UHGV virus genome: UHGV-0151125
Source of the DNA: a virus
Length of the DNA: 17,225 nucleotides
Strand: one strand, 5' to 3'
Shown: positions 2,013-17,225 of the stretch, piece by piece
Layout of the letters: every line of letters begins with the position of its first letter
Numbering within the stretch: the first letter of the stretch is position 1
Translations under genes and position numbers: made by a program
The notes under the pieces: model-generated
Told to the model about the DNA's origin: nothing
Seen by the model: only the letters and a program-made list of their open reading frames with translations
Database searches by the model: none

Positions 2013-2041
2013 AGGCCGCACCCAGCGTGCGGCCTTTTTTT
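2013..2041 (+). terminator. Rho-independent terminator (aggccgcac-ccagc-gtgcggcct + TTTTTTT)
   Basis: 9-bp perfect GC-rich stem, 5-nt loop, 7 T's, directly after the stop at 1999. Confidence 0.8.
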
Positions 2042-2779: not shown

Positions 2780-3381
2780 GCTACAAGGATGTCAAAGCCG
2801 AGATCAAGAGCGCGCGCGTGCTTAACAACACGGTCGCGCGCTTGCTGCGCGCTACGCGCAAAGGAGCCTTGGACTTGACGACCGTCGGCGAGGGAGGCAT
2901 TGCCACGCGCTACGAAGTGCGGGAGTTCCAGATCGCGAAAGCCGTCAACGAGCGGCGCAAGTCGCTCAGGCGCAAGAAGCTGGGGATCGACTACGGCCAG
3001 ACCCTGGGACGCATGGGAACGTTGCAGCAGAACAACCTCCTTCCCGACAAGCGCACCGCGCGAGACTTCTCTCCCATCGCCCTCAAGCGCTTCATCAAGC
3101 GTTACGAGGAGCTGAGCGCTACGAGTTCCTATGAAAGGCTGAACAGGTACTACAAGAACTATATCAAAGGCCTCAACACGGTGTTCGGCGGCTACTCCGA
3201 GTTCGATGCGGCTATATCGCAGATCGCGAAGAAGATCGAATCCATGATGAAGTCCAACGCGGGCGACCTCATGGATTTCTTCGAGTCCGGAGACGAGCTT
3301 TTGAACATCGAGTACATTTACGCTCCTGAAGACCGCGCCGACAAGATGGGCTATATCCTCGACAGATGGGCTGAGCTATGA
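2641..3381 (+). CDS. Terminal protein (primer protein for protein-primed replication), 246 aa
   Basis: Basic 246-aa protein immediately upstream of the protein-primed DNAP. RBS ggtgaggag. The basic N-terminus and the segment GGYSEFDAAISQIAKKIES resemble phi29 p3 (GSFNSFDAADELIEELKK) as recalled. Size and synteny are typical. Confidence 0.7.
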   Translation: MQREPKIKWTESQRSRLNSAVRKYNNAIRRAMRANPVNARFMPEPVSYKDVKAEIKSARVLNNTVARLLRATRKGALDLTTVGEGGIATRYEVREFQIAKAVNERRKSLRRKKLGIDYGQTLGRMGTLQQNNLLPDKRTARDFSPIALKRFIKRYEELSATSSYERLNRYYKNYIKGLNTVFGGYSEFDAAISQIAKKIESMMKSNAGDLMDFFESGDELLNIEYIYAPEDRADKMGYILDRWAEL

Positions 3382-3382
3382 T

Positions 3383-5071
3383 ATGCAGTACTTCACGGCC
3401 GATTTCGAAACGACGGCAGACGACCTGACCCGGACGCGAGTTTGGGCGTGGGCTGCCTGCACCTTGAAAACCTACGATATAACGACCGGAACTTCCATCG
3501 AAGGGTTCGTGGAATGGTGCGAGCGCGCCCCGGACGCTCGCGTGTACTTCCACAACCTGAAATTCGACGGGAAGTTCATCATATCGCATCTGCTCGATGC
3601 GGGGTGGGAATGGATTCCCAGCCACGGAGAGCAAGCGCCCTACCGGTTCACGACGTTGATCAGCGACATGAACCAGTTCTACACCATCAAGCTCTGTTTC
3701 GGGCGCGGGCATTATATCGAATTCTGCGATTCGTTGAAGATCATCAGCTTGCCGGTCGCGAAGATTCCGAAGGCGTTCGGCTTCGAGGATGAGGACGCGA
3801 AGCTCGAGATAGACTACACGGGGCATCGCGATCCCGATCACGTTCTCACGCAGCAGGAGATAGACTACATATCGGCAGATGTCAGGATCGTGGCGCGCGC
3901 CTTGGGCGAGCTGATCGACCAGGGCGCGACCAGGATCACGGCGGGATCGAACGCCATCGCCGAGTACAAGAAGACGATAGGAGGCGAGAAGGGGTTCAGG
4001 CGCACCTTTCCGGTGTGCGACTACGACGCGGAGATCCGGCCATGCTACAAGGGAGGATTCACCTACGTCAACCCCGATTTCAAAGGGCGCGACATCGGGG
4101 AGGGTATCGTCCTGGACGTTAACAGCCTGTACCCTTCCGTCATGGCCGGTGTTGGAGGCGAGACCCTGCCGTACGGCGATCCGATGCTCTTCGAAGGGGA
4201 GTACGTCCCGGATCCTCGATACCCGCTCTACATACAGACCGTGACCGTCGACTTCAAGCTCAAGCCCGGCTTCATCCCGTGCTTGCAGCTCAAAGGCAAT
4301 TTGAGCTTCATGCCGACCGAATACGTAGTCGATTCCAAAGGAGAGCAGACGCTGGTGTTGACCAGCGTCGACTTGGCGCTTCTGCGCGACCACTACGATG
4401 TCTATTCCATCCGCTACGGCAAAGGCTGGAAGTTCAAGGCATCGAACAAGCTATTCTACGATTTCATCATGGCGGCCAACGAGGAGAAGGTGCATGCGGC
4501 CGAGGAGGGAAACGCCGGCAAGCGGTACATGGCGAAGCTCAAGATGAACTCCTCGTACGGGAAGATGGCGACGCATCCGGTCAAACGGAGCCGCCGGCCG
4601 GTCATGTGCGAGGACGGCATAGTGCGCTACCCTCTGCTCGAACCGGAAGAGACCGACGGCATGTACCTGCCGGCCGGGGCTTTCATCACGGCATGGGCGA
4701 GGAACAAGACGATACGGAGCGCGCAGAAGGTGAAGGATCGTTTCCTCTACGCCGACACCGATTCTCTTCATCTGGCCGGAACCGAGATCCCGGAAGAGCT
4801 TGACGTGGACGATTACAGATTGGGCGCGTGGAAGCTCGAAAGCACGTTTCAGCGCGCCAGGTTCCTGCGCCCGAAGACCTATATCGAGGACGAGGGCGGC
4901 AAGCTCACCGTGCATTGCGCGGGGTTGCCCGAATCGTGCCATCCTCACGTCACATGGGATAATTTCCATGTCGGCGCGAAATTTCCGGGAAAACTCTATT
5001 CCAAGACCGTAAAAGGCGGTATTATACTATGCGAAGGTGATTTTGTCATCAGAAAGGAGGCAGGCTTATGA
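3383..5071 (+). CDS. Family-B DNA polymerase, protein-primed type (phi29 p2-like), 562 aa
   Basis: Motifs seen in the translation: Exo I DFETT, Exo II YFHNLKFDGKF, motif A DVNSLYPSVM, motif B KMNSSYGKM, motif C YADTDS, KTY. Length is typical of protein-primed DNAPs. ATGA-type coupling to neighbouring genes. Confidence 0.92.
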   Translation: MQYFTADFETTADDLTRTRVWAWAACTLKTYDITTGTSIEGFVEWCERAPDARVYFHNLKFDGKFIISHLLDAGWEWIPSHGEQAPYRFTTLISDMNQFYTIKLCFGRGHYIEFCDSLKIISLPVAKIPKAFGFEDEDAKLEIDYTGHRDPDHVLTQQEIDYISADVRIVARALGELIDQGATRITAGSNAIAEYKKTIGGEKGFRRTFPVCDYDAEIRPCYKGGFTYVNPDFKGRDIGEGIVLDVNSLYPSVMAGVGGETLPYGDPMLFEGEYVPDPRYPLYIQTVTVDFKLKPGFIPCLQLKGNLSFMPTEYVVDSKGEQTLVLTSVDLALLRDHYDVYSIRYGKGWKFKASNKLFYDFIMAANEEKVHAAEEGNAGKRYMAKLKMNSSYGKMATHPVKRSRRPVMCEDGIVRYPLLEPEETDGMYLPAGAFITAWARNKTIRSAQKVKDRFLYADTDSLHLAGTEIPEELDVDDYRLGAWKLESTFQRARFLRPKTYIEDEGGKLTVHCAGLPESCHPHVTWDNFHVGAKFPGKLYSKTVKGGIILCEGDFVIRKEAGL

Positions 5072-6915: not shown

Positions 6916-6928
6916 CCTATGTTCTGCC

Positions 6929-6960
6929 GAGGGCGGGATTCGTTTCCCGCCCTCCTTTCC
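6929..6960 (+). terminator. Hairpin gagggcggga-ttcgtt-tcccgccctc followed by a short CTTTCC tract; candidate partial terminator/attenuator after the capsid gene
   Basis: Perfect 10-bp GC stem 14 nt after the MCP stop. The U-tract is short, so likely leaky. Confidence 0.45.
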
Positions 6961-6974
6961 GAAGGAGGTGAGAA

Positions 6975-13334: not shown

Positions 13335-13514
13335 ATGGATGTTAACGATATTGTCACTCTTATCGGTAGTCTGGGCTTCCCTATTGTGGCTTGCGTGGGC
13401 ATGTTTTACCTGTACAATCGTACTCTTAAGGATTTTACTAGCACACTTAACGACATTGCGAGCGAGATTAAGGAGATACACGAAGAGCTTAAAGAGCTGA
13501 TCAAGAATGCTTAG
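13335..13514 (+). CDS. Small single-TM holin-like protein, 59 aa
   Basis: Strong RBS taggagga. One hydrophobic helix (LIGSLGFPIVACVGMFYLY) plus a charged C-terminus. Overlaps the endolysin start by 8 nt. AT-rich island. Confidence 0.55.
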   Translation: MDVNDIVTLIGSLGFPIVACVGMFYLYNRTLKDFTSTLNDIASEIKEIHEELKELIKNA

Positions 13515-14181
13515 GGGCATCGACATATCGAACTGGCAAGCTGGGTTGGACGCGGATAGCGTGTTCCCGAACGTGGACTTCGTGATCTGCAAGGCGACCG
13601 AGGGCGTGGATTTCGTGGACGGATACTGCGACAGCTGGGTGCAATGGTGCCGCAGAAACGGCAAGCCCTGGGGCTTCTACCATTTCGCGAATTCCAACGA
13701 TCCCATGAAAGAGGCTATCCATTTCATAGACAACACGAGCAACTATTTCGGCGAAGGTATTCCGGTGCTTGACTGGGAGGGCGGCCAAAGCGTTGAGTGG
13801 GTCAACGAGTTCGTGAACATCGTCCACGATCAGACCGGAATCTGGCCGTGGATCTACGCCAACCCCTGGCGATTCAACCAGGGCGGCGTGGAGCAGAACT
13901 GCATGCGCTGGATCGCGAGCTACCCCGACGTGCTGCGCCCGGGACTCGACTACGACCCCGGCGAGCCTCCGGAGACGGACGGCCTCGTCGGCTGCTGGCA
14001 GTACGCGTCCGACGGGCAGGTGCCCGGATACGCGGGCAACCTGGACGTGAATCACTTCTTCGGAAGCGTCGGCGCGTGGCAAGCGTACGCGGGCGTCCCA
14101 TCTTCGGGACAACCTGACCCGTCGCCTTCGCAGTCGGTTTTGGAAAACGATAGATTCCGCGTGACAATCGAAGAGAAGTAA
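13507..14181 (+). CDS. Endolysin, GH25 family muramidase (lysozyme), 224 aa, no obvious cell-wall-binding domain
   Basis: N-terminal RGIDISNWQ, DFVICKATEG, GFYHFA and LDWEG signatures of Glyco_hydro_25. Confidence 0.8.
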   Translation: MLRGIDISNWQAGLDADSVFPNVDFVICKATEGVDFVDGYCDSWVQWCRRNGKPWGFYHFANSNDPMKEAIHFIDNTSNYFGEGIPVLDWEGGQSVEWVNEFVNIVHDQTGIWPWIYANPWRFNQGGVEQNCMRWIASYPDVLRPGLDYDPGEPPETDGLVGCWQYASDGQVPGYAGNLDVNHFFGSVGAWQAYAGVPSSGQPDPSPSQSVLENDRFRVTIEEK

Positions 14182-14310
14182 TGTATGATGGTCATGCGCC
14201 GGAAAGCAAGCTATCTTCTGCGTCTGTGGGGCACCCGGTGAAACGGGCACGGGCGCATACGGAGAACAGCCCCCTCTGTGATAGTCTTTTCGGTTAGCGC
14301 CCTTTGACTT

Positions 14311-14347
14311 GCCGCCCTCCGCTTGCACAGCATGATGGAGGGCGGCG
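14311..14347 (+). other. Strong hairpin (gccgccctcc - 17-nt loop - ggagggcggc) within a 200-nt GC-rich non-coding region
   Basis: 10-bp perfect stem. No U-tract follows, so it is not a canonical terminator. Additional stems at 14194-14200/14252-14258 and 14234-14247. Confidence 0.5.
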
Positions 14348-14389
14348 CTCTAAAAGTCGAGGGAAATTCTCAAGTCAAAGGAGGAAATC

Positions 14390-14461
14390 ATGAAAATCAA
14401 AGAGCTTTTGAAATACGCCGAAGAAGGAATAACGGTGTACTTCGGCTCGACATTGAAATGA
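14390..14461 (+). CDS. 23-aa mini-ORF (MKIKELLKYAEEGITVYFGSTLK) with a strong RBS
   Basis: aaaggagg at 14377-14384, 5 nt from the ATG. Its TGA stop overlaps the ATG of the next ORF (ATGA). Alternatively the 5' part of a frameshifted single gene. Confidence 0.3.
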   Translation: MKIKELLKYAEEGITVYFGSTLK

Positions 14462-14586
14462 ACTATTGCTTCGATAAGAACAGCTCTCTTAGCGAAGCAG
14501 ATATGGAAGTGCTGAACATGGAACCGTCGAAAATCTGGGGATGGGACGATGGAACTATCTGCGTTGAAGTGAAGATAAATGGCTAA
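14458..14586 (+). CDS. 42-aa ORF (MNYCFDKNSSLSEADMEVLNMEPSKIWGWDDGTICVEVKING) coupled to the upstream mini-ORF and overlapping the ATPase start by 8 nt
   Basis: The stop-start overlap architecture on both sides suggests translation. No RBS of its own. Confidence 0.35.
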   Translation: MNYCFDKNSSLSEADMEVLNMEPSKIWGWDDGTICVEVKING

Positions 14587-15589
14587 GTACTGGGACATAT
14601 CGAAGACTCTCTCCTACAACTGCCTGTTCAACTTCATTTACGGCATCCGCGGTGCGGGCAAGACCTACACGGGGCTGCAGCACTATGTGAAACGGTACCT
14701 GCGCACGGGCAAGCGCTTCATGTATTTGCGCCGCACGGAAGAGGAGTTGAAGAACCTGGCCACCCGCAAGGATGGTCGCCTCTTCAACCATGTGCAAGTC
14801 GAGTTCCCGGGACACGCGCTCTGGGCTGAATCCAACATCCTGCATATCGACAAGGAGATATGCGGCTACGCGCAAGCGCTGTCAACGGCGCGCAAGCTCA
14901 AGTCCGATGCGCTGGACAACGTGGACACGATCCTGTTCGACGAGTTCGTCATCGACAAGGGTTTCCAAACGTACCTTCCCGACGAGGTGACGGCGTTCTT
15001 GGAGCTTTACGAAACCATCGCGCGACCCGGTTCGCGTGATTACGACGTAACCTGCATGTTCTGGGGAAACGCGGTGACCTCGGCGAACCCCTACATGGAC
15101 TACTTCAAGTTGGAGCTTCCCTACAAGACGGACGTATGGAGGCGCGGCGAGTTCCTGACGCAGATGGTAGCGCCTCCCGAGCTGATCGAAGCGAAGAAGG
15201 GCACGCGCTTCTACCAGGCGATAGCGGGCAGCGACTATGCGGCGTACGCGGCCGAGAACAAATGGTTGCGCGACAATCCGAAGTTCATCGCGAGAAAAGG
15301 CAAGAATGCCGAATACCAGTTCACGCTCCTTTACTACGACGATGCTATCGGCATATGGCGCGACAACCGAAACGGATGCTATTACGTATCGGAAGACGTT
15401 GACCGCCAATGCCGCCACGTGTTCGCCGCCACGACGGAAGACCATGAGCCGAACACTCTGCTGCTCAAAGGTTTCAAATCCTCGCCCCATCTGGCTAACT
15501 TGAAGAAGGCTTACGACATGGGGTGCGTGCGGTACGAGTCCATGAAGCTCAACAACTGGTTCAGGGATATTGTTAGGATGGGATTATGA
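14579..15589 (+). CDS. DNA encapsidation (packaging) ATPase, phi29 gp16-like, 336 aa
   Basis: Walker A GIRGAGKT, Walker B ILFDEF. Extended similarity to phi29 gp16 (LSYDRILNFVIGARGIGKSY; VFDEFI...NAVSVVNPYF) as recalled. Confidence 0.88.
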   Translation: MAKYWDISKTLSYNCLFNFIYGIRGAGKTYTGLQHYVKRYLRTGKRFMYLRRTEEELKNLATRKDGRLFNHVQVEFPGHALWAESNILHIDKEICGYAQALSTARKLKSDALDNVDTILFDEFVIDKGFQTYLPDEVTAFLELYETIARPGSRDYDVTCMFWGNAVTSANPYMDYFKLELPYKTDVWRRGEFLTQMVAPPELIEAKKGTRFYQAIAGSDYAAYAAENKWLRDNPKFIARKGKNAEYQFTLLYYDDAIGIWRDNRNGCYYVSEDVDRQCRHVFAATTEDHEPNTLLLKGFKSSPHLANLKKAYDMGCVRYESMKLNNWFRDIVRMGL

Positions 15590-15834: not shown

Positions 15835-16535
15835 TGGCTGAGCCGGTTATAATCAGCGCTACCAAGCAAGGCGGCGTTGAGAACGCTTACGTAGGAACCA
15901 TCGGAAACGACGGCTATATATACTTCAACGATGTTGACTTCTACCGCTTCAAGAACGAGGGCACGTGGGAGAACAACGTATACGTGCTTAACCGCACTCG
16001 CCACTCATGGACGAAGACGACCATGTTCACCAAGATCAGCGCGCAGAATCTCAATTCAGGCTCTGGAAGCGTCGCACCCGGCGGATCAGGCGTTGAGGGC
16101 GCGTGTCTGTGGGCTGTCGGGATCGCCGACGACAACAGCCACGGCTACGACCAGCCGACGCGGGACGGCGGCGTGGACTTCGACTGCTCGAGCCTTGTGT
16201 CCTGGGCGTTCCGCGAGAACGGATGGGACGTTCCGTTCCCCTCCCCCTCCACCTACAACATGTCCAGCGTGTTCACGGGGCTTGGCTTCAAGAGGTACAA
16301 CGGCAACCCGGCAGCGTCGGATTTGGTGCGCGGGGACATCGTTCTGTTCGAGGGCGACATATCGGCGGGCACCGGGCACGTGGAGCTGTATCTCGGAGAC
16401 GGTATACTCGTGGGCGCGCATATCAACGAGTTCGGGGGCGTGGCCGGAGGGCAGCCGGGAGACCAGACCGGGAACGAGATATCGACCGGCGGGTATTACA
16501 GGAGCTGGAACTGTTGGCTGAGATGGGAGGGTTAG
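15834..16535 (+). CDS. NlpC/P60-family (CHAP-like) cysteine peptidase with an N-terminal ~100-aa extra domain, 233 aa; candidate virion-associated or second lytic peptidoglycan hydrolase
   Basis: RBS ggagg at 15821-15825. FDCSSLVSWAF (catalytic Cys context), GDIVLF...GHVELYLGDG...GAHIN (His region) are typical of NlpC/P60. The ORF track's start at 15720 extends into the upstream gene. Confidence 0.7.
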   Translation: MAEPVIISATKQGGVENAYVGTIGNDGYIYFNDVDFYRFKNEGTWENNVYVLNRTRHSWTKTTMFTKISAQNLNSGSGSVAPGGSGVEGACLWAVGIADDNSHGYDQPTRDGGVDFDCSSLVSWAFRENGWDVPFPSPSTYNMSSVFTGLGFKRYNGNPAASDLVRGDIVLFEGDISAGTGHVELYLGDGILVGAHINEFGGVAGGQPGDQTGNEISTGGYYRSWNCWLRWEG

Positions 16536-16610
16536 GGTGTTGTCGCATTATATTGCACTTGTAGTGGGCACTATGTTAGGTATCGCTATTATGTGTCTGG
16601 TGAGCGGTAA

Positions 16611-16631
16611 TAAATGAACGTTGTTCATTAA
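16611..16631. promoter_or_regulatory. Third copy of the operator-like inverted repeat TAAATGAAC-gtt-GTTCATTAA, overlapping the -35 region of the right-arm promoter
   Basis: Same arm sequence and 3-nt spacer as the ITR copies. Confidence 0.5.
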
Positions 16632-16660
16632 ATCTAATTATCACTTGCTTGTTGTATAAT
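16632..16660 (+). promoter_or_regulatory. Right-arm promoter with consensus TATAAT (16655-16660), TG just upstream, poor -35
   Basis: TATAAT sits 43 nt upstream of ATG 16703, with an RBS in between. Confidence 0.45.
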
Positions 16661-16702
16661 ACAGTTGTAGGGATAAGTCGAAGGGTGAATGGAGGAATTG
16701 AC

Positions 16703-16975
16703 ATGTTTCTAGGGCTTCCGGGATTTGCGTGGTTCGTGATCGGCGTTATCGTGGTGGCAGTGCTGGTCACAGTGGCAAATTGGTATATCATGTACTGCGT
16801 GTTCGACTGGGCAGTGCATCATGTAAAGCATGTTTGGTTGGAAGAGCCTACGGATGCGATTGACATTAAGGAAAGCGAATATCCTAAGCCCATTAAAAGA
16901 GAAATTTCTGATGAAGAATATGAGAATTGGGAAAAATGGATGGATTACTTGGAGGATAGACGTGAGGATGCATGA
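16703..16975 (+). CDS. Small membrane protein, 90 aa (N-terminal TM helix, acidic C-terminal tail)
   Basis: RBS ggagg at 16691-16695, 7 nt to the ATG. Hydrophobic stretch FAWFVIGVIVVAVLVTVANWYIMY. The track's longer start at 16649 lacks an RBS. Confidence 0.55.
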   Translation: MFLGLPGFAWFVIGVIVVAVLVTVANWYIMYCVFDWAVHHVKHVWLEEPTDAIDIKESEYPKPIKREISDEEYENWEKWMDYLEDRREDA

Positions 16976-17051
16976 GGAGCAGATAGTTGCGTGCTTGTTT
17001 ATGGCGGTCATTTTGGCCGCCTTACTCATTGTCAAACTGACAGCGCATTGA
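16968..17051 (+). CDS. 27-aa hydrophobic mini-ORF (MHEEQIVACLFMAVILAALLIVKLTAH) running into the right ITR
   Basis: ATG 16968 preceded by gtgagg. The 3' third lies inside the ITR. Speculative. Confidence 0.2.
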   Translation: MHEEQIVACLFMAVILAALLIVKLTAH

Positions 17052-17225
17052 TGAACGATGTTCATTAATTGCATGATTGAGATGACAATTGGAAAATGAT
17101 TTGACATGAGGTGATGAAGCTTGTATAATGAGGGTATCAAATCCAGCAGACAATTGAAGATGGGGGGAAAGAGGGTGTCAGATTTACTTTTATACCTGAC
17201 TCTTATACACATCTCCGAGCCCACG
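17016..17225. repeat. Right inverted terminal repeat (17196-17225 is adapter)
   Basis: Reverse complement of 1-210. Confidence 0.7.

Follow-up and report, generated by a model that had tools for sequence, protein, structure and literature searches.

Does a phi29-type phage from outside the Bacillus phages carry an RNA subunit in its DNA-packaging motor, and if so, where is it encoded? This question is raised by UHGV virus genome UHGV-0151125 (17,225 nucleotides, analysed over its whole length and referred to below as the window), and in particular by a non-coding gap at positions 14182-14389, upstream of its packaging ATPase gene. Packaging RNA (pRNA) is, to our knowledge, the sole case of an RNA serving as a subunit of a viral DNA-packaging motor; it is known from the Bacillus phages phi29, PZA, B103/Nf/M2, GA-1, SF5 and their relatives, whose pRNAs share shape far more than sequence. 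According to a 2024 review, pRNA is unique to phi29 and some related Bacillus phages, measures 174 nt in phi29 (of which 120 are sufficient), and holds on the prohead the phi29-type ATPases, which lack a portal-binding domain (PMC11476376). The answer proposed here, to which we assign a probability of roughly 65%, is that the gap encodes a structured RNA of ~105-190 nt, a pRNA-type packaging RNA heading the ATPase operon transcript. Because scoring with the Rfam pRNA model RF00044 ('Phage_pRNA') fails, the RNA is filed as a variant of the pRNA kind, and not as a member of RF00044.

The gap comprises 208 nt, bounded by the end of a lysozyme gene and a start codon at 14390, and is non-coding, with stop codons in all three + frames, as the original prediction had stated, and likewise in all three - frames. 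On the + strand, 14182-14390 has a minimum free energy (MFE) of -90.3 kcal/mol, compared with -71.8 +/- 4.6 kcal/mol for dinucleotide shuffles (z = -4.0, with 0/200 shuffles as good), and 14195-14381 reaches z = -4.3, while folding of the - strand of the gap is weaker (z = -1.9 to -2.6). The GC content, previously put at ~60%, is 56.2%, equal to the genome mean (55.1%) and high only against the remaining non-coding stretches (37-45%). None of the other non-coding stretches examined (1-255, 580-715, 875-1140, 16536-16650, 16565-16830 and 17052-17225) is structured (z -1.6 to +1.4), and 16536-16650, which had been named as an alternative pRNA site, gives z of -1.0 and +0.3. A permissive Rfam search (E <= 10) of the whole window, and of 14150-14420 alone, returned no pRNA, riboswitch or other family, the lone match within 14182-14389 being a spurious snoRNA on the - strand, and nothing matched at the gathering threshold in eight related genomes.

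Relatives were gathered by ATPase protein search, DNA pattern search and look-ups of distant ATPase homologues, yielding more than 60 contigs of 14-18 kb (individual loci are given L numbers below). Nearly all have a gap of ~185-380 nt before the ATPase, irrespective of the upstream neighbour, which may be a GH25 lysin, an amidase, a holin or a small open reading frame (ORF). RNAalifold, applied to a structure-blind MAFFT alignment of 38 distinct sequences, gave 50 pairs, 19 of them with compensatory changes. A covariance model, R1, built from the MAFFT alignment finds exactly one site per genome searched, window included, with scores of 221 bits for the window, 105-118 for clades D and E, 84-86 for loci whose ATPase is 58-64% identical and 10-30 for those whose ATPase is 50-56% identical. 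In an alignment of 27 distinct sequences to the model, 97.6% of cells are paired and 36/53 pairs are changed on both sides; no measure is reached by any of 500 shuffles, and sliding the 3' partners by 1-3 columns lowers pairing to 35-53%. Indels between relatives are not multiples of three and are located in loops. A search for the core pattern in 185,579 bacterial and archaeal genomes, which required an exact pattern and was thus of limited sensitivity, gave seven chance matches, all in unrelated high-GC organisms and none confirmed by R1. The original prediction had proposed a functional structured RNA near the motor gene and folding with covariation analysis across related phages as its check: the helices do covary, and together with the fold z-scores and a conserved predicted promoter (see below) the compensatory changes strongly support such an RNA.

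The conserved fold consists of two domains, the first of which is a three-way junction with the following parts:

14195-14299, + strand: domain 1, 105 nt, three-way junction with pRNA-like topology (from the MFE fold, RNAalifold on the MAFFT alignment, pair counts in the covariance-model alignment and comparison with RF00044)
14195-14206 with 14286-14299, + strand: helix P1 (A-helix-like), with U14295-A14296 bulged
14210-14215 (GCUAUC) with 14280-14285 (GAUAGU), + strand: helix P2, which extends the closing helix (MFE fold)
Between P2 and P3, + strand: joint UUC, 3 nt
14219-14228 with 14248-14257, + strand: helix P3 (C-helix-like), 10 bp (pair counts in the covariance-model alignment)
14229-14233, + strand: 5' bulge GGGCA (CE-bulge-like; fold)
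14234-14247, + strand: P4 hairpin (E-like), 4 bp with loop GUGAAA (fold and covariation)
Between P3 and P5, + strand: joint of 1 nt
14259-14279, + strand: P5 hairpin (D-like), 6-bp stem ACGGAG/CUCUGU and 9-nt loop AACAGCCCC at 14265-14273 (helix 7 of the covariance-model alignment)

P1 is paired in 98.9% of cells across the 27 sequences, with compensatory changes at 5/8 pairs of helix 2, and its sequence (UGCGCCG...CGGU-UA-GC) is near-invariant within the Eggerthella-phage clades. The outer stem first suggested for this region, atgcgcc/ggcgcat (14194-14200/14252-14258), exists in the sequence but lies outside the conserved fold, as it is paired in 66.7% of cells across relatives, compared with 98.9% for 14195-14201/14291-14299, and it is rejected as a conserved helix. 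P2 shows two compensatory pairs, identified by eye, between the window clade and L028/L029; its length varies by clade, with clades C, D and E having a shorter or uncertain P2. In the arm formed by P3, the bulge and P4 (14219-14257; helices 3, 4 and 6), 11/12 pairs are changed on both sides and 99-100% of cells are paired. P4 corresponds to the earlier cccg-gtgaaa-cggg stem, which is real and covaries, and the 3' strand passes from P4 into P3 without an unpaired base, as in the phi29 consensus. The P5 stem is 97.5% paired with one-sided changes only (G-U to G-C), its own covariation being weak because the stem varies little in sequence. The E-like hairpin has a GURARA-type loop in the Eggerthella clades, Clostridium phage CI461P1, L192, L152 and L157, a recurrence that hints at common descent.

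A further feature shared with pRNA is a complementarity between the bulge and the P5 loop. In phi29, four bulge bases (AACC) pair with the D-loop (GGUU) of the neighbouring pRNA, closing a ring. In the window, GGGC of the bulge (14229-14232, + strand) is complementary to GCCC at 14269-14272 in the P5 loop, and the complementarity covaries among related phages (it is also helix 5 of the covariance-model alignment), as listed here (bulge / loop):

Window and clades A-E: GGGC / GCCC
L151: GUGG / CCAC
L156: GUGC / GCAC
L203: GUGCA / UGCAC
L154: GGGUU / AACCC
L202: UAGGC / GCCUA
L205: GCGCA / UGCGC
L152: UGAAA / UUUCA
L157: UGAUA / UAUCA
L158: AAAGCA / UGCUUU
CI461P1: ACCA / UGGU
MT835873: UGUGA / UCACA
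L192: CACC / GGUG

Cognate bulges and loops can form 4-6 contiguous Watson-Crick pairs in 13/13 lineages, through at least 10 different sequence pairs; of the non-cognate combinations, only 8% reach 4 bp. The phi29 pair fits the same scheme, so that with phi29 included all 14 cognate combinations have at least four contiguous pairs. Covarying bulge/loop pairing is a hallmark of pRNA ring formation, and by analogy with phi29 the contact here may be intermolecular; from the sequences it is a candidate kissing interaction or pseudoknot, formed between RNA copies or within one molecule.

The RF00044 consensus structure, obtained on phi29 itself (145 bits), allows the two RNAs to be compared element by element. 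It consists of the A helix, one joint base, a 9-bp C helix containing a 1-nt bulge, a bulge of 9 nt confined to the 5' side, an E hairpin of 4 bp with a 6-nt loop, the uninterrupted C 3' strand, three U, a D hairpin of 6 bp with a 5-nt loop, and the A 3' strand. The window fold, by both MFE and covariation, contains an A-like helix, junction, C/bulge/E arm and D hairpin in the same 5'-to-3' order, with closely similar helix lengths (C 9 bp and P3 10 bp; E and P4 both 4 bp with 6-nt loops; D and P5 both 6 bp). Both RNAs have a core of ~105-120 nt with paired 5' and 3' ends and an extra 3' domain; both have a complementarity of at least 4 nt between bulge and D-type loop that covaries among relatives; and both show scant sequence conservation between lineages. 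The window RNA differs in its shorter bulge (5 nt compared with 9 in phi29) and longer D-type loop (9 nt compared with 5), in having no RF00044 score or detectable sequence similarity, and in its 3' end, which lacks a U-tract terminator of its own and includes the ribosome-binding site of the next gene.

The two phages are also alike as hosts, as both are small podophages of the phi29 type that replicate by protein priming and encode a GP10 connector and a gp16 ATPase. The window, 17,225 bp, is a complete linear genome of phi29 type; its inverted terminal repeats (ITRs) are perfect over 210 bp, all genes are on the + strand, and 84% of it aligns with Eggerthella phage LE1-1 (MW679025, filed under Guelinviridae) at 94.6% identity. 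Pfam identifies a type B DNA polymerase, phi29-type major capsid protein, GP10 connector, GH25 lysozyme and gp16-type ATPase among its proteins (PF05352, E = 1e-43; PF05894, E = 8.5e-63; PF25622 and PF03175 also matched). The ATPase aligns with phi29 gp16 (7jqq, residues 6-325) and with its isolated C-terminal domain (6v1w, E = 1.7e-12); the gp16 C-terminal domain is retained.

Outside the Bacillus phages, the only precedent found is Streptococcus phage Cp-1, for which a pRNA, missed by pRNA covariance models, was predicted (Martin et al. 1996, via PMC6266182). The present RNA family resembles the Cp-1 RNA in lying outside the Bacillus phages and in being missed by models, and differs in being defined by covariation over many genomes. 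For Guelinviridae and Eggerthella phages, the literature consulted contains no mention of a pRNA. The predicted Cp-1 pRNA is encoded near a genome end.

The same design is found directly upstream of the ATPase in three far lineages: Clostridium phage CI461P1 (ATPase 30% identical to that of the window), fecal contig MT835873 (37%) and L192, a contig found through MT835873 (48% identical to the MT835873 ATPase over the matched part). In each, a promoter close to consensus is followed by a long closing helix, an arm bearing a small hairpin and a bulge on its 5' side, and a second hairpin with a loop complementary to the bulge; a U-rich tract comes after these. In CI461P1 the closing helix is ~23 bp with bulges, and its clade shows compensatory changes in the closing helix, the lower C-like helix and the D-like stem. 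R1 gives no matches in CI461P1, MT835873, L192, Enterococcus phage Athos or Bifidobacterium phage BD811P1, suggesting that in the far-lineage RNAs sequence has diverged while shape is kept.

Other gaps in distant phages were noted in the course of these comparisons. In Athos (L160; LR990834, Salasmaviridae), the 266-nt gap at 4577-4842 has no Rfam pRNA match at the gathering threshold, and contains a TTTACA-17-TAAAAT promoter, a multi-helix RNA closed by its own ends and a strong U-tract terminator; from its sequence, it is a candidate for an unrecognised pRNA at a third genomic position, between early and late genes. Two other phi29-like phages, which lack the RNA ahead of the ATPase, have non-coding gaps as well: Clostridium phage CPD2 (L201) has one of 107 nt after the ATPase (2524-2630), and BD811P1 (L162) has a 228-nt gap at 4655-4882 ending in a strong terminator, as well as a 127-nt promoter-bearing gap at 14819-14945 before the ATPase. 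The CPD2 and BD811P1 gaps could hold packaging RNAs of their own.

A pRNA is expressed as a discrete small RNA from its own promoter, and both predicted ends of the gap RNA bear on this. Upstream of domain 1 lies:

14161-14189, + strand: predicted sigma-70-type promoter, with -35 GTGACA at 14161-14166, a 17-nt spacer and -10 TATGAT at 14184-14189 (consensus scan, 10/12 matches)

The -35 element is within the last codons of the lysozyme gene, and the promoter ends ~5-6 nt upstream of the first paired base of the RNA, placing the predicted transcription start at ~14195-14197, at the first base of P1. A promoter-like site (TTGACA-like, 16-18 nt spacer, TATAAT-like) is present at the equivalent position in 15/15 lineages checked, ending 4-9 nt before helix 1, and in L152 it is a perfect TTGACA-17-TATAAT. 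Given this placement in the 15 lineages, the RNA is predicted to start with the 5' strand of its closing helix, an arrangement typical of stand-alone structured RNAs.

The 3' end is less uniform. In the window, the hairpin at 14311-14346 is followed by GCUCUAAAAGUCG, with no U-tract and no match in a terminator scan, confirming the absence of a U-tract pointed out earlier. Low-GC relatives do carry one after the homologous hairpin, namely AUUUUUA in L152, UUAUUU in L157 and eighteen U in L203, and also in L158. By sequence, the hairpins of L152, L157 and L203 are genuine intrinsic terminators, placed ahead of the ribosome-binding site of the next gene, and a discrete small RNA is expected in L203 and L152 because of the canonical U-tract terminator after this domain. 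The run of 18 U in L203 (~655-680), a human-gut contig, is either a terminator tail of unusual length or an artefact of assembling a homopolymer. The L157 RNA is not adjacent to the ATPase: it has a TATAAT and a terminator-like hairpin of its own and is found two genes further upstream.

The second domain occupies the remainder of the gap and extends to the Shine-Dalgarno (SD) sequence of the following gene:

14301-14381, + strand: domain 2, long GC-rich hairpin (helices 8-10 of the covariance-model alignment)
14301-14310 with 14372-14381, + strand: outer stem (helices 8-10)
14311-14320 with 14337-14346, + strand: inner GC stem (helices 8-10)
14324-14326 with 14330-14332, + strand: tip stem, 3 bp, with conserved apical sequence CUUGNNNNNCAUGAU
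14354-14363, + strand: 'decoy' strand AAGUCGAGGG, an alternative partner of the anti-SD strand 14301-14310 (duplex energies)
14372-14384, + strand: 3' strand of the outer stem, overlapping the SD sequence AAGGAGG (14378-14384) of the next ORF (ATG at 14390); 89.2% paired across relatives

In helices 8-10, 17/20 pairs are changed on both sides. The inner stem, the 10-bp gccgccctcc/ggagggcggc of the original prediction, is real and covaries, although its loop is 16 nt rather than 17; it is 100% paired, with the clade variants GCCGCCCUCC, AGCCCCUGUC, GGCCGCCG, GAGCGCCCC or AGGCGCGUC. In the Eggerthella clades the outer stem invariably contains the SD of the following gene, be it the ATPase or any of the unrelated small ORFs, at least four in number. 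The anti-SD strand can pair either with the decoy or with the SD strand 14372-14381 (AAGUCAAAGG), and the two structures, which expose and hide the SD and exclude each other, are near-isoenergetic (-41.6 and -42.6 kcal/mol, respectively). Duplexes of the anti-SD strand with the linker are better than those with shuffled linkers in 8/9 sequence variants, clade C among them; this comparison of energies replaced a column-wise decoy count on the covariance-model alignment, which gave 61% and was uninformative because the linker is out of register. In clade C all three strands have changed together (UAUGCG / CGCAUA / GCAUAAGG), while the decoy is absent from clades D and E and from L156. Decoy pairing would free the SD site, and by this model the strands may switch.

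On the analogy of phi29, a mechanism can be outlined for such an RNA. Copies of the RNA would be joined, bulge to P5 loop, into a ring that sits on the connector of the empty prohead, with the P1/P2 helices pointing outward as a docking site for the gp16-type ATPase; the ATPase, which lacks a portal-binding domain of its own, would attach there by its C-terminal domain, and the RNA would depart after packaging. The GC hairpin of domain 2 would end the small RNA, as a true terminator in the low-GC relatives and probably a leaky one here, and with its outer strand paired to either the decoy or the SD strand, read-through transcripts would translate the downstream gene or ATPase in one conformer only. 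We think that domain 2 may in this way serve a double duty, ending or attenuating the small RNA and gating translation on read-through transcripts, and conformer-gated translation would tie ATPase output to RNA output. A more tentative extension, for which the odds are distinctly against, is that motor RNA and ATPase come from one transcript, with the decoy/SD helix making ATPase translation depend on leader folding or assembly state; we know of no such arrangement in phi29.

Several observations weigh against a pRNA-type assignment. RF00044 has no match at E <= 10 in the whole window or in 14150-14420 alone, and R1 does not match phi29 pRNA even with filters off, so that homology with phi29 pRNA has to be argued from shape alone. 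The closing helix is ~17 bp with bulges, compared with ~24 bp for the phi29 A helix, and the RNA is encoded between a lysis gene and the ATPase, on the ATPase strand, while phi29 pRNA is encoded at the left genome end on the early strand. Since this phage has no U-tract terminator, the RNA may exist merely as an mRNA leader, and an SD built into the structure together with a covarying decoy strand has the look of a cis-regulatory element. A bulge-loop contact across a three-way junction may also form within one molecule, as the pseudoknots of some riboswitches do. An alignment fitted to a covariance model leans towards the structure of that model, although the MAFFT alignment and the raw sequences show the same compensations; L152, L157, L158, MT835873 and L192 were parsed by eye (the far lineages also by MFE). 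Two Guelinviridae phages of C. perfringens, CPQ7 and CPD2, lack such a gap ahead of the ATPase, and the upstream arrangement is thus not universal in Guelinviridae. In L153 (9788-10000; ATPase 52% identical), the gap, a TTGACG-18-TACAAT promoter and a GC hairpin are present, but the interior does not fit the family fold, having a C-like arm whose 5' bulge GUUGCA contains the palindrome UGCA and an extra hairpin 5' rather than 3' of the arm. The original pRNA-like idea gains support from the order of elements, the bulge/loop covariation and the retention of the gp16 C-terminal domain; the RF00044 model gives no match, a role in packaging is inferred from phi29, and the 3' part also resembles a translational control element, a possibility that the original prediction did not raise.

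The alternative that survives best, although we consider it improbable, is a purely cis-acting leader with no motor role, in which domain 1 is a sensor (of a ligand, or of a protein such as the ATPase) and domain 2 an expression platform controlling read-through or ribosome access for the ATPase/tail-lysin operon. The element always heads a transcription unit containing the ATPase, the SD is in the 3' strand of the outer stem, the covarying decoy gives two near-isoenergetic conformers, and relatives alternate between SD sequestration and a U-tract terminator, a pattern typical of riboswitch classes. As in riboswitches and other leaders, a promoter-proximal fold is followed by a terminator or SD-hiding helix with alternative pairings, the type of platform varying among relatives, and aptamers in which a bulge-loop pseudoknot locks a three-way junction are known, for example from THF-type riboswitches. 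Unlike known leaders, however, the RNA matches no Rfam riboswitch or leader family and has no conserved ligand-type core: the sequences of junction, bulge and loops differ between lineages and architecture alone is kept, and the family has so far been found only in phi29-type phage genomes, the exact-pattern search having given none in bacteria. None of the alternative pairings, all confined to domain 2, competes with domain 1, so that there is no sign of domain 1 acting as a sensor and no visible path from sensor to switch; the decoy is missing from clades D, E and L156; and CI461P1, MT835873 and L192 have no separate platform, their U-rich tract following directly after the closing helix. 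A leader without a motor role would also leave a phi29-type motor and gp16-type ATPase with no RNA adaptor anywhere in the genome.

A trans-acting motor RNA is favoured over such a leader because the phage keeps the type of ATPase that pRNA holds on the prohead, because this RNA is the only structured non-coding element found in the genome, because the L157 RNA, with its own TATAAT and terminator-like hairpin, sits two genes away from the ATPase, because unpaired nucleotides are not conserved between lineages as they are in ligand-binding cores, and because the core pattern is absent from the 185,579 cellular genomes save for the seven chance matches rejected by the model.

Less probable still is a trans-acting small RNA with another job (an anti-defence decoy, host-factor sponge, or regulator of replication or transcription) whose likeness to pRNA is convergent. 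The strong predicted promoter, the terminators of some relatives, the presence of one conserved structured RNA per genome and the L157 RNA away from the ATPase would all suit such an RNA. Nothing indicates a particular alternative function, though, and linkage to the ATPase operon is kept where ATPases are just 30-37% identical to that of the window; the match to pRNA in element order and helix lengths would then be a coincidence. The second option of the original prediction, a decayed gene or non-functional spacer with chance stems from GC-rich sequence, could draw on a GC content resembling that of coding regions and on two listed ORFs that overlap the region (a long antisense ORF at 13501-14328 and a TTG ORF at 14323-14586), but is hardly tenable and is rejected, a gene remnant being ruled out by stops in all six frames and RNA-type covariation (36/53 pairs with compensatory changes), with non-triplet indels in loops, a conserved predicted promoter, and a gap that is near-identical in LE1-1 (one indel, one substitution) while the adjoining 3' end of the lysozyme gene diverges.

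The genes flanking the RNA are as follows:

13507-14181, + strand: GH25 lysozyme (Pfam PF01183), the 5' neighbour of the gap
14390-14461 (23 aa) and 14458-14586 (42 aa), + strand: small accessory ORF, broken, outside the RNA (alignment with LE1-1)
14579-15589, + strand: phi29 gp16-type DNA packaging ATPase (Pfam PF05894, nearly full length, E = 8.5e-63)

The gap is therefore not directly 5' of the ATPase, as had been supposed: the small broken ORF (14390-14586) intervenes before the ATPase start at 14579. Compared with LE1-1 gene 18 and most relatives, this ORF has a 7-nt deletion that shifts its frame, and is either a pseudogene or the product of a sequencing or assembly error; its LE1-1 homologue has no Pfam family. 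Among 42 loci compared, at least four unrelated small ORFs (~60-75 aa) occur between the SD of the RNA and the ATPase (L007, L014/L015, L033 and window/L001), and many relatives have none, so that this slot resembles an insertion hot spot where accessory cassettes adopt the SD embedded in the RNA.

In clade C (L030-L043, ~position 3001 of each locus), the ATPase frame opens with ...AAGGAGGAnnCU AUU UCU AAG UAC UGG and has no ATG, GTG or TTG; the sequence suggests that ATT is the start codon. L033, the sole clade C member with an inserted upstream ORF, has ATG TCT AAA in place of the AUU start. Further downstream, the 'tail lysin' of LE1-1 (L001 14270-15442) has 390 aa, while the ORFs within 15931-16535 of the window are all shorter, such as 15931-16521 (196 aa, no Pfam match); these shorter ORFs and the alignment of only 84% of the window indicate that right-end gene content differs from that of LE1-1 or is disrupted.

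Elsewhere in the window, a canonical intrinsic terminator follows the early genes at 2013-2035 (+ strand; AGGCCGCAC...GUGCGGCCU, then seven U), and a short GC-rich hairpin region lies between capsid and tail genes at 6916-6974 (z about -3 on both strands). The ITRs (1-210 and 17016-17225) each contain a perfect outward TTGACA-17-TATAAT promoter, at 125-97 (- strand) and 17101-17129 (+ strand), from which run-off transcripts of ~92-96 nt to the genome ends are predicted. Because it is unstructured (z = +1.2), the ITR run-off transcript is no pRNA candidate.

A pRNA-type reading of the gap, if true, would define a second, sequence-unrelated family with pRNA architecture in phages of gut Actinobacteria (Eggerthella) and Firmicutes, comprising at least 10 orthogonal bulge-loop pairs, and RNA-dependent packaging would be a general property of phi29-type motors. 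It would provide comparative data on which parts of the RNA matter, and would bear on whether pRNA is ancient or acquired. Since pRNA is a workhorse scaffold of RNA nanotechnology, the family would also offer new GC-rich three-way junctions and kissing pairs for engineering. The reading is directly testable, because LE1-1 is a cultured isolate whose RNA region is near-identical to that of the window. The SD-sequestering 3' domain adds a possible link between production of the motor RNA and translation of the ATPase: if both do come from one transcript, pRNA dosage, ATPase dosage and perhaps co-translational docking of the ATPase would be coupled in cis, and pRNA-type RNAs would be widespread in the non-Bacillus phi29-like phages of the human gut.

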